From Ophelia neglecta (Eukaryota), in contig OZ260663.1 in the NCBI GenBank assembly GCA_965285935.1, positions 73,842,001 to 73,906,000 on the forward strand: a stretch of DNA of 64,000 nucleotides, in the 5' to 3' direction. A program made the position numbers and the translations under genes. Shown piece by piece: positions 10,121 to 13,300 of this stretch (position 1 is its first letter; every line of letters starts with the position of its first letter). The notes beneath the pieces are model-generated. The model made no database searches, was not told where the DNA came from, and saw only the letters and a program-made list of their open reading frames with translations.

Positions 10121-10394
10121 ATGGTTGAAATTGTTTCCTTTAAAAAAGTCCAGTCTGCTTTGAACAATCCAGCCTATTCACTTGATGCCAATGATGTAGA
10201 GGTGACAATTCCAGCCGAAACGAGCAGACCCGTGGCCGCCACTGGTGACACCGTTCGTAACGCACAAGAGCCGGACGTTCAGAACAAACGATGTTGTCAG
10301 GATATAAGAGGACATTCCGTGTCGACCTATGTGCTTTTGGCCATGCTCCTTATTCTAGCTGGAGCAGTGGGTGGGTTAGCGGGCGCACTAATTG
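10121..10394 (+). CDS. Gene A first exon 1a: cytoplasmic tail with NPAY plus TM helix; phase-1 donor
   Basis: MVEIVSFKK...NPAY...[23 protein letters not shown]|gtaaat. Aligns with gene B exon 1a. Confidence 0.85.
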
Positions 10395-13300
10395 GTAAAT
10401 ACAAACAAAATTCATTTCAATTATTCTTAGTGATATTTGGCTACTTTAAATTATTATTACATATCAACAAGAGCAACAATGTAGCCCTCTTATTATTATA
10501 TCAGAAGCTCCCAAAGATTAGTGGACTATTTAATTTGGAATACGTTAACTATTTTAATTGAGTTCATTACAAGCTTATCTACAGTTATAGAGCTGAGAAC
10601 TGATGTTTGTGCACATGCAGCAGACGATTTCTAATGCTTTGGACCGAATTAATTATTTTGACTTGTGCTGGGTATTAACACCTTTATTTCCTGGTATATA
10701 AGTACTAACTTTTTTCAACCCCGACTCCCCAACCCATTCACCCCTTAAGAAAAAGCCCGGATATATAATTGTCCAAGTACATCAAGAAAGACTTAAAAGG
10801 CAACTATCATTTGGGCATTTTCGCATGACACGACATTTGTATTTCAAGAAGATGCTGTAGATTTGATACGAATGCGCACAGGCTTTCCTGAAACGCAGAG
10901 AAATTGCATATTTGTAACTCAGGGAACGCACAATCATACCGTTCACAGAATTTTTTTGCAATGGTTCTAGGTAATTTGGAAGGTTATTAAGAATCAAGTA
11001 TTTGATAGTTGATGAGATACAATTTCCGGCGCATGCACCTGCAATCAGCTTTGACCTATTGGATCAACTATTATGCAGCCCTTTGTTACCAGGGGTGCTT
11101 TGCAGTGGTGCAGGGCCAAGTTCATTTTGTTTGCTAGTATAACATAGTCGTTTAACACCCTTGACTTATTCACAGTTAATGGGTGATAGCTCCTCAAAAA
11201 AAGATAAAATCGCCATTTCGGTTGATTTCTACCACCTGAACTGATCATAAACAAGAATAAATCGAAATTTTTTAATTCTCTCTAAACAAAAATTTACATT
11301 TAGGCTCATCTCTATGAGCTTGGTTGTCAAACATCAACTAAAGCAACTGCCCAGATTGCAAGTACAAATAACTGTAAATCATGACCGAGGTTAGGTCACC
11401 ATCCAATTTTGGATCTTCCGAGGGCGTTGTTATTTGCTTTTTCCCAATAAATTTATCCAGAACTCAGATTTGCCTCATAAACGAGTAAGTTCGCTGTAGA
11501 TCTGTTCTTTATAGAACGAGGGTTCTGGATAAAGCATTATCGCTTTGTCTGAAATTTCATGATGTCTGCAAAACGGATAAATGGGAGGTTTTTATTAATC
11601 ATGATGTTGCTTATAGTAATATGTGCAATTATAACTGGTTTAATTGTTTACACAATCGTTAAAAACCACAGTGAAAAGGTGGACATTTCATCCCCACAAA
11701 CTAGCACAACAGGAAGCACCACAACTTCAGCTACTTCACAATCGACAGGAGCTAGTTCACCAGCATCGACTACGAAGACGACTCTCCTAACCTCATCAAC
11801 AACGGTTTTTTCTTCTACAGCCATGACTTCGTCTTCGACTGCGGCCTCAACCACTACGACATCAGTACTGCCGACAACTACCAGCACAATATCTACAACC
11901 AAGCCTACCACTACAACAATACCTACGTCAACAACTAAGCCTACCGTAGCTACCACAATTTTGCCTACCACCACAGCTTTACCAACAACCACAAATCCGC
12001 CTTCCCCTACCACAACCCTGCCAGACATGACCGACGCAGAGAAGGCTCGCGTAGACTGCTGGCCGCAGGCTAAATATGGGGGCGACCCGGTCGACTTTGA
12101 GGATTGTAGGAATATGGGATGCACATGGGATGCCTCACCTAGACCGGATGTACCAGCGTGTTATGTCAGCGATCGGGACCCACTGGGATTCGGCTACCAG
12201 GTGACAGACATGGACTGGGTGAACTTCCATGAAACAGGGGTCACAATCAAGATGGTTAGTAAAGCTGGACCGAGAAGCGCAAAGGCCAATTCTGGTCAAA
12301 GTGAAAGCGAATTTGTCATCTTTGAGGCGACCTACTATGATGAAGACCTACTGAACTTTAAGGTAAGTCCCTCTTTCAATTATAAAGCCCAAAGAGGACA
12401 AATATGACGCATTTTTGCATTTGAAATATTTTTGCATTTGTAGTTTTTTCGCATGAATCGTCACCTCTAGGAGATGAATCTGAAAATGTCCCAGTTTGGG
12501 TTCCACGCTTTTTTGAAATATTTAAGAAAAAGGTTGGTAGTTGTACAAAGTGTAGCCGTTTCGTAGCTTTATATTGATTGGGTCTGAACAAAACAATTGC
12601 TTTGTGACAGCAAATGAAAACAAAAGCATCTGTTAATTTAAAGTGACATGCGGTAAAACCAATGAAACCTTAGTGAATCTACAGTACCGGAAATGTTTCA
12701 CTAAAGACTCTTAAATGACAATTTAATAATTCTTTCATTTTAATTATGAATGATGTCAAAAAGGATATTGAAAGGCGATACGTATTTGATGTTTTAATCA
12801 CTGCTATTGTATTTTTCGTGATTTGTTTTTCAATGAACTCGTCAGAAATAAAGGCCGCTTTTAATGATATTGATTTTGTGACAGTGACATTTCTTGGAAT
12901 ATTTAATTCGATTGGAAATATTGCCCCTTTTTTGCTAAGATAAATAGTAACTAATCAACAAACCTAAATGTGACTGTATGATGTATTTCGTAAGGTACAT
13001 GAACGATTTAAATCAAGTATTGTTTTGTTTTCTCTTAGTTCTACAGAAACGTCAGTGATAACTACAAGGTTCCCGATGAGGCGTTGAAGTTGAACTTGCC
13101 CATACCCTCTTTCCACCCGACCAGAAGACCCAGATACGAAATTAAAATCACCAGCTACATTCCCTTCACGTTTCAAATCATTCGCACCAGTAACGGACGA
13201 GTTCTGTGAGTATTAGTTACCGAATTACAATTGCATTTGAAATATCCTATAAGTCACTCATACTGAATTTACGATAAGCAACACATTGGAAAGTCTATCA

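Follow-up and report, generated by a model that had tools for sequence, protein, structure and literature searches.

How a single gene might supply one enzyme with two different membrane anchors is the question raised by a 64-kb stretch of AT-rich DNA from the animal Ophelia neglecta (contig OZ260663.1, positions 73,842,001 to 73,906,000; hereafter the window), which carries two maltase-glucoamylase/sucrase-isomaltase (MGAM/SI)-like GH31 genes in tandem on the + strand. In each gene an upstream exon (exon 1a) and, separately, the start of a downstream exon (exon 1b) encode a cytoplasmic tail followed by a transmembrane segment (TM). An earlier note on this DNA had suggested that alternative promoters swap these anchors and set the length of the Thr-rich stalk behind them, so that the 5' part of exon 1b would be translated in one isoform but spliced out of the other. 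The analysis described here leads us to favor, at somewhat better than even confidence, an arrangement in which an upstream promoter gives isoform a and a downstream promoter isoform b, and each gene would make two type II membrane forms of one tandem GH31 enzyme. All features are on the + strand unless stated otherwise.

Results

In gene 1, the coding part of exon 1a (10121-10394) specifies a cytoplasmic tail of ~70 amino acids (aa) and TM1 (~10331-10394) and ends at a phase-1 donor at 10395 (5.9 bits); in gene 2, it specifies a tail and TM1 over 40810-41116 and ends at a phase-1 donor at 41117 (6.6 bits). The two tails are 70-78 aa long with a juxtamembrane Cys, TM1 contains a conserved GGLAG, and both tails have an NPxY motif at residue 16, i.e., NPAY in gene 1 (10166-10177) and NPGY in gene 2 (40855-40866). 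NPxY at this residue was found in 0.4-0.5% of shuffled tails, the motif having been picked after inspection. When 4800-11660 was compared with 32000-42160 using tblastx, exon 1a gave the one significant match (E 1.7e-7), which runs from the ATGs to the donor; the next match was the antisense frame of the same exon (E 0.099), and nothing else fell below E 0.09. Compared with shuffles, the paralog alignment reached a z of 9.7 for the tail and 7.7 for TM1. The synonymous difference (pS) in exon 1a is 0.73-0.86 and, thus, near saturation, the ratio of nonsynonymous to synonymous difference (pN/pS) is 0.40 in TM1 (the last 33 codons of the exon), and 13 of the 15 identical TM1 residues are encoded by different codons in the two paralogs. 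Because exon 1a is the sole significant match between the paralogs, ends at the donor, has nearly saturated synonymous sites, and has kept NPxY, we conclude that it is genuine coding sequence; judged from the sequence, it is also older than the gene duplication. Exon 1a had no match in Pfam or NCBIfam, and a profile of it run against proteins of 50-179 aa gave no hit at E<=1 among 345 candidates.

Exon 1b has its ATG at 11559 in gene 1 and at 42052 in gene 2; a second ATG in gene 1, at 11562, has a better context and aligns with the gene 2 ATG. An in-frame TGA lies just 5' of the ATG in both genes (11550-11552 and 42040-42042), and a single open frame then encodes a TM (TM2), the Thr-rich stalk, a trefoil domain, and the first beta region up to donors at 12363 and 42841, respectively. 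The part specific to exon 1b comprises, in gene 1, the two ATGs, a short tail, TM2, and the 5' half of the stalk (11559-11820), which would be intron in the exon 1a isoform under the favored arrangement, and, in gene 2, the ATG, a short tail, TM2, and the 5' stalk (42052-42340). The common part comprises the 3' stalk, the trefoil (from 12027), and the N-terminal beta region in gene 1 (11821-12362) and, in gene 2 (42341-42840), the 3' stalk, a second candidate acceptor at 42505, and the trefoil (from 42508). TM2 has a hydropathy of 2.8-3.2 over 19 aa, Ser and Thr make up 55-57% of the stalk, and the exon 1b tail plus TM2 is constrained (pN/pS 0.50). The gene 2 TM2 (42052-42153) ends in small residues that form a possible signal-peptidase site, and isoform b of gene 2 might, therefore, be secreted.

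A profile of the trefoil region yielded 42 representatives, of which 36 were fetched and 35, those with 19 or more residues ahead of the trefoil, were counted; P0003, P0008, P0012, P0037, P0039, and P0042, which are multi-domain or multi-trefoil proteins and one of which is possibly human, were excluded from every count. One TM was present in the trefoil frame in 33 of the 35 relatives and two TMs in none, and these 33 relatives have tails of 4-75 aa and linkers of 14-118 aa. By this comparison, exon 1b is the usual layout of the family. Because most relatives end a few residues past the first conserved donor of the window, they appear to be open frames of single exons taken from genomic DNA; they carry no genomic context and are unable to reveal an exon 1a. 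The trefoil-region search among proteins of 470-2000 aa returned none of 79 candidates, and in a GTDB scan none of 464 pattern matches was confirmed. Silent sites between the paralogs are nearly saturated and both anchors are under constraint and, therefore, we conclude that, on these measures, both anchors have been retained in both genes since an old duplication. As to the source of exon 1a, we considered that it might be a partial duplicate of exon 1b and found no clear homology between TM1 and TM2 (z 0.4-2.0); a resemblance of its tail to those of the relatives P0041 and P0020 (z 2.8 and 3.7, out of many comparisons) fell short of being convincing.

Gene models were assembled by hand and subsequently checked by script. 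Counted from the exon 1b ATG, gene 1 has 43 exons (11559-31956) that encode 1994 aa with a single terminal stop, and gene 2 has 41 exons within the window (42052-63150) that encode 1900 aa without a stop, its last exons lying at or past the window edge. Exons 2-43 of gene 1, which encode two GH31 halves in an open frame, occupy 13039-31956, and exons 2-41 of gene 2 occupy 42939-63150. Intron phases are identical across the 41 exons common to both genes, and 81 of the 82 introns are GT-AG; the remaining one, gene 1 intron 23 (22036), is GC-AG and has a GT-AG counterpart in gene 2.

These 82 introns were used to build an acceptor matrix (leave-one-out median 7.1 bits; 5th percentile 2.7 bits), with which we scored the stalk. 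The stretch from the exon 1b ATG to the trefoil contains 13 open, in-frame phase-1 AGs in gene 1 and nine in gene 2. Because xCA-Gxx codon pairs create them, such sites are common in a Thr/Ser/Pro stalk, and in each of three null models 99.4-100% of 5000 stalk shuffles contained at least one. The four CCAG sites that the earlier note had singled out (11763 and 12024 in gene 1; 42340 and 42505 in gene 2) are indeed in frame, in phase 1, and open, but they do not rise above chance: 11763 (1.5 bits) and 12024 (-0.2 bits) fall in the 0-1st percentile of real acceptors and 42340 (4.1 bits) and 42505 (4.0 bits) in the 7-9th. Moreover, the tracts at 11763, 12024, and 42505 contain 4-5 Ts compared to at least seven in all 82 real acceptors.

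The only acceptor that beats chance is one that the earlier note did not list. This internal 3' splice site of gene 1 (11787-11820) consists of a CTAAC branch point (A at 11790; encoding Leu-Thr), a T-rich tract that encodes Val-Phe-Ser-Ser, including the sole Phe of the stalk, and a CAG ending at 11820. At 9.74 bits, 11820 is at the 87th percentile of the 82 real acceptors and is the best site between the donor and the trefoil; it beats all 409 exonic decoys (maximum 8.39) and 99.9% of 1193 intronic decoys, has its CTAAC at -30 and an AG-free zone of 41 nt, and still ranks first of five sites if the matrix is trained on gene 2 only. The three stalk nulls give P 0.0002-0.0008 for this site, and P 0.004-0.006 if the T-rich TM2 region is included. 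We conclude that acceptor 11820 is, by these scores, non-random. In gene 2, the best in-frame internal acceptor (42319-42340; CTTAC with A at 42322) is at chance level. We nevertheless prefer 42340 over 42505 because it has seven Ts, CTTAC at -18, the T-richest window of the stalk, and an N-terminal length like that given by 11820.

If exon 1a is joined to 11821 in gene 1 and 42341 in gene 2, the frames that start in exon 1a are open over 1998 and 1906 aa, respectively, and the trefoil starts at residue 167 and 165; in gene 1, the two isoforms would be nearly equal in length (1998 aa for a and 1994 aa for b). In-frame AGs upstream of the exon 1b ATGs all lead to stops. While the coordinates given in the earlier note for exons 1a and 1b, the donors, the upstream stops, and the CCAG sites all proved correct, its junctions 10394->11764 and 10394->12025 are probably wrong, given their scores and few tract Ts, and 10394->11821 is favored. 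The conservation in both paralogs on which it relied holds for exons 1a and 1b but does not extend to the acceptor, which in gene 2 is at chance level. The proposed anchor swap itself fits the data and is strengthened by 11820, even though the acceptors originally named for it are weak.

We also examined the sequence ahead of the two starts. An acceptor is present 24-47 nt before each exon 1b ATG with a donor at normal intron distance, defining candidate introns in the 5' untranslated region (UTR) at 11390-11514 in gene 1 (donor 7.4, acceptor 7.4 bits) and 41864-42027 in gene 2 (donor 7.2, acceptor 5.5 bits). A pair of an acceptor of at least 5 bits and a donor of at least 7 bits, thresholds that were set afterwards, is present before both exon 1b ATGs; of 2228 overlapping test points in intergenic sequence, 3.6% have one. 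These data suggest that exon 1b probably has its own 5'-UTR intron; they also make doubtful the start site that the earlier note had placed just upstream of 11559 and 42052, and point to a non-coding leader further upstream. Before exon 1a, a weak acceptor lies exactly 37 nt from each ATG with donors 110-112 nt further upstream, giving a weak candidate 5'-UTR intron at 9974-10083 in gene 1 (donor 5.5, acceptor 4.0 bits; not above background alone) and a candidate at 40661-40772 in gene 2 (donor 10.6 bits, weak acceptor of 3.1 bits). No TATA match was found within ~400 nt upstream of the exon 1b ATGs, and non-coding alignments upstream of exons 1a and 1b, within and between genes, did not exceed shuffles or intergenic controls in 12 of 12 tests. 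No non-coding similarity is left between the paralogs that would mark either promoter. Three further possibilities were rejected: a leader that uses the strong donor 11484 and joins 11821 or 12025 would yield a chain without an anchor, a micro-exon at 11461-11484 would contain a stop, and the peptides read from upstream in-frame ATGs across the candidate exon 1a UTR introns are unrelated between the paralogs. The donor at 11485 is very strong (9.3 bits) and lies 30 nt 5' of the 11514 acceptor, i.e., less than the shortest real intron (98 nt); it may be due to chance.

Our working model is as follows. Isoform b would use the usual exon, with its ATG, a tail of ~10 aa, TM2, a stalk of ~130 aa, and the trefoil, and would probably be reached from its own non-coding leader via the short 5'-UTR intron. 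Isoform a would start from an upstream promoter at exon 1a and carry the NPxY tail and TM1; exon 1a would join in phase 1 to a stalk acceptor, 11820 in gene 1 and most likely 42340 in gene 2, and this junction would delete the exon 1b ATG, TM2, and half of the stalk, leaving ~70 aa of stalk. Exon 1a would have to skip 11514, use of which brings a stop after 103 aa, as well as 11616; we speculate that it does so because 11820 is strong and the exon it defines is shorter. Both the use of these junctions and the existence of two promoters are predictions of this model. By extension from work in mammals, the NPxY tail together with a shorter O-glycosylated stalk may take the enzyme off the apical surface and direct it into an endocytic or basolateral pathway. 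A broader proposal, to which we give clearly less credence and which we regard as tentative, is that one invertebrate GH31 gene would combine the brush-border role of SI and MGAM with an endocytic, intracellular-digestion role, with tail, TM, and stalk swapped together by a splice site in the mucin stalk, and that this switch was kept through the old duplication.

Several observations weigh against the two-promoter arrangement. None of the tails of the 33 relatives contains NPxY; a two-paralog profile run against proteins of 197-2000 aa returned none of 354 candidates and, thus, no long relative; and no transcript, protein, or sequence from another species with exon 1a was present among the 345 candidates mentioned above. 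In gene 2, no stalk acceptor exceeds chance (42340: P 0.23-0.31 with stalk nulls and 0.33-0.60 with wider nulls), and as few as the seven Ts of the 42340 tract are found in only five of the 82 real acceptors. Exon 1a would have to bypass the upstream acceptors 11514 (7.4 bits), 11616 (6.1 bits), and 42027 (5.5 bits), and the exons defined by 11821 and 42341 would be 542 and 500 nt long compared to 50-180 nt for the 80 other internal exons. Within TM1 of gene 1, donors at 10370 (8.3 bits) and 10374 (7.5 bits) are stronger than 10395 and are not shared with gene 2. Neither promoter is backed by non-coding conservation between the paralogs, the UTR-intron and NPxY tests were picked after inspection of the sequence, and the UTR-intron reading has a cost in gene 2 in that it implies two upstream ATGs, one stopped at once and one that is out of frame and in a weak context.

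Alternative explanations

The same two proteins could also arise from one promoter if a leader upstream of exon 1a either joined exon 1a or skipped it to reach the acceptor before the exon 1b ATG. Such coupled splicing would make use of the acceptor-like sites 37 nt before the exon 1a ATGs and 24-47 nt before the exon 1b ATGs, and the gene 2 donor 40660 (10.6 bits) is in its favor; we consider it unlikely because the exon 1a acceptors score poorly (4.0 and 3.1 bits) and because the good donors at intron distance ahead of the exon 1b acceptors suggest a separate leader within the interval between exons 1a and 1b. Slightly less probable still is that exon 1a encodes a separate small membrane protein or is engaged only in unproductive splicing, e.g., to 11515 with a stop after 103 aa. 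Here, 11514 scores well as an acceptor (7.4 bits) and is in frame, with a TGA after it, and profile searches (354 and 345 candidates) did not find the joined protein; yet the gene 2 counterpart 42027 leads into another frame, where it adds 38 unrelated aa, tblastx detected no second conserved exon between exons 1a and 1b, and the non-random site 11820 would be left unexplained. We regard as improbable that only one 5' end is still in use while the other is a relic, left by a partial 5' duplication and now in decay. While both anchors are much less conserved (34-45%) than the enzyme body (70-73%; synonymous difference 0.66-0.69), pS is 0.66-0.86 and near saturation, and yet both anchors are open, hydrophobic, and alignable in both genes, which is not expected of a relic.

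The remaining explanations keep a joined protein and place the junction elsewhere. Joining exon 1a directly before the trefoil (12025 and 42506) would remove the stalk altogether. These positions are homologous, with 22 of 38 nt upstream and 32 of 40 nt downstream identical, and the relative P0001 starts at the matching Met, which could be an exon start or merely a contig end. However, the sites score -0.2 and 4.0 bits with four and five tract Ts against at least seven in the real acceptors, CCA-GA simply follows from Pro-Asp/Glu codons, and the resulting linkers of 8 and 13 aa would be shorter than in any of the 33 relatives; this junction seems to us no more probable than the relic. The least probable explanation is a single chain with both TMs, or with TM1 and the whole stalk, made by joining exon 1a to 11617 in gene 1 and 42059 or 42146 in gene 2. 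All of these junctions keep an open, uninterrupted frame, and 11616 scores 6.1 bits and has a TTAAT branch candidate, but a score of this size is what T-rich TM codons would give (P 0.18-0.30), the gene 2 sites score -1.5 and -1.9 bits, none of the 35 relatives has two TMs, and two full TMs would be predicted to place the enzyme on the cytosolic side.

Other features of the window

Both genes have a trefoil (PF00088) above the Pfam cut-off that precedes the first catalytic half, and PF01055 (GH31 barrel) was matched in all three barrel fragments scanned. Each open frame contains two sets of GH31 motifs, the best PDB matches are MGAM chains, and a trefoil-like Cys pattern is visible by eye ahead of the second half (exon 22). 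Both canonical catalytic Asp residues, i.e., the nucleophile and the acid/base, are present only in the N-half of gene 1; in the N-half of gene 2, His replaces the acid/base Asp (47681-47849), and the nucleophile position of the C-half, as assigned by motif, is Tyr in gene 1 (25761-26094) and Glu in gene 2 (59028-59489). Even so, pN/pS values of 0.24-0.27 indicate purifying selection on every half. Based on these sequence features, the two genes are MGAM/SI-like homologs and not enzymes with two active sites.

Within the introns of the two genes, gene 1 intron 21 contains an AG/GT-flanked possible micro-exon between the enzyme halves (20885-20914) that is not required by the open frame, and gene 1 intron 37 contains an assembly gap of 154 N (28861-29014). 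In gene 2, intron 4 (44355-44813) has repeated degenerate copies of the exon 5 acceptor and start, with decoy acceptors of up to 8.3 bits (44412), and intron 21 carries a 747-codon reverse-transcriptase open reading frame (ORF) of the long interspersed nuclear element type on the + strand (51985-54228; RVT_1 E 2.7e-34). Upstream of gene 1, the + strand holds the 3' exons of a gene with EGF-like repeats (1-4739) with a stop near 4739. Between the two genes lies an intronless 278-aa ORF on the - strand (34428-35264) with an Arg-Ser repeat C-terminus and no match in Pfam or NCBIfam; around an FTGxLSG motif, it matches residues 1008-1115 of PDB 8p50/8p52 ('Toxin protein') with E 1.9e-4. This ORF resembles a bacterial toxin-type domain, with a motif similar to those of CNF1-like deamidases, and may have been acquired horizontally by the animal genome. 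An Rfam search gave no match in the window.

Discussion

The two predicted isoforms would be a natural test of which sorting signal is dominant, an apical stalk or a tyrosine motif in the tail, and also of how animals with both lumenal and intracellular digestion position one enzyme at the two sites. In the excerpts of earlier reports on which we draw here and below, the O-glycosylated stalk of p75NTR sends the protein apically and tail signals prevail when the stalk is shortened (PMC2139957), and the LDL receptor is endocytosed and sorted basolaterally through tyrosine signals in its tail (PMC2120116, PMC2289410). A practical consequence is that gene predictors are likely to annotate just one of the two starts. 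The tyrosine signal of the LDL receptor is reportedly of the NPxY type, as in the exon 1a tails.

The window genes resemble MGAM and SI in having trefoil and GH31 twice, an N-terminal anchor, and a Ser/Thr stalk; they differ in having an additional anchor exon, whose long tail carries NPxY, and in that three of the four halves have a changed catalytic Asp. The stalk of SI is noted in one of the excerpts (PMC2139957), and an annelid transcriptome report describes membrane and extracellular MGAM-like forms, with no N-terminal detail in the excerpt (PMC11083476). Our literature search, which covered few subscription journals and no supplements, found no paper describing alternative anchors for GH31 or MGAM/SI genes; it also met no such switch among MGAM/SI proteins and no case in which tail, TM, and O-glycan stalk change together. 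The first exon of human GAA is non-coding, and its start codon sits in the large exon 2; transcripts that skip this exon fully, or partially via an internal acceptor, lack the start codon (PMC5415960). The exon 1b ATG behind a candidate non-coding leader is similar; however, the partial skip in GAA, as excerpted, is aberrant and start-less, whereas in the window the upstream coding exon would supply an in-frame start and an anchor.

Alternative 5' ends that retarget type II ectoenzymes are already known from ECE-1 and GCNT2. ECE-1a-d arise from alternate promoters and have different N-termini and plasma-membrane versus endosomal locations (PMC2099187). The arrangement in the window would work alike, but tails as well as TMs differ, and the stalk length would also change via an acceptor within a coding exon. 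By contrast, the ECE-1 isoforms are said to have their TM in common. The A, B, and C forms of GCNT2 each place a different exon 1 and promoter on common downstream exons (PMC11873079). These first exons are separate, whereas exon 1b in the window is continuous with the common sequence. Each GCNT2 exon 1 reportedly bears its own anchor. Finally, exon 1b would resemble the hybrid first-internal exons scored by the HIT index, which serve as the first exon of one isoform and as an internal exon of another and number in the thousands in human (PMC8769537). That class is defined by junction reads; if exon 1b has a UTR intron, it would be internal in both isoforms, and the switch would represent alternative 3' splice-site use tied to the choice of first exon.

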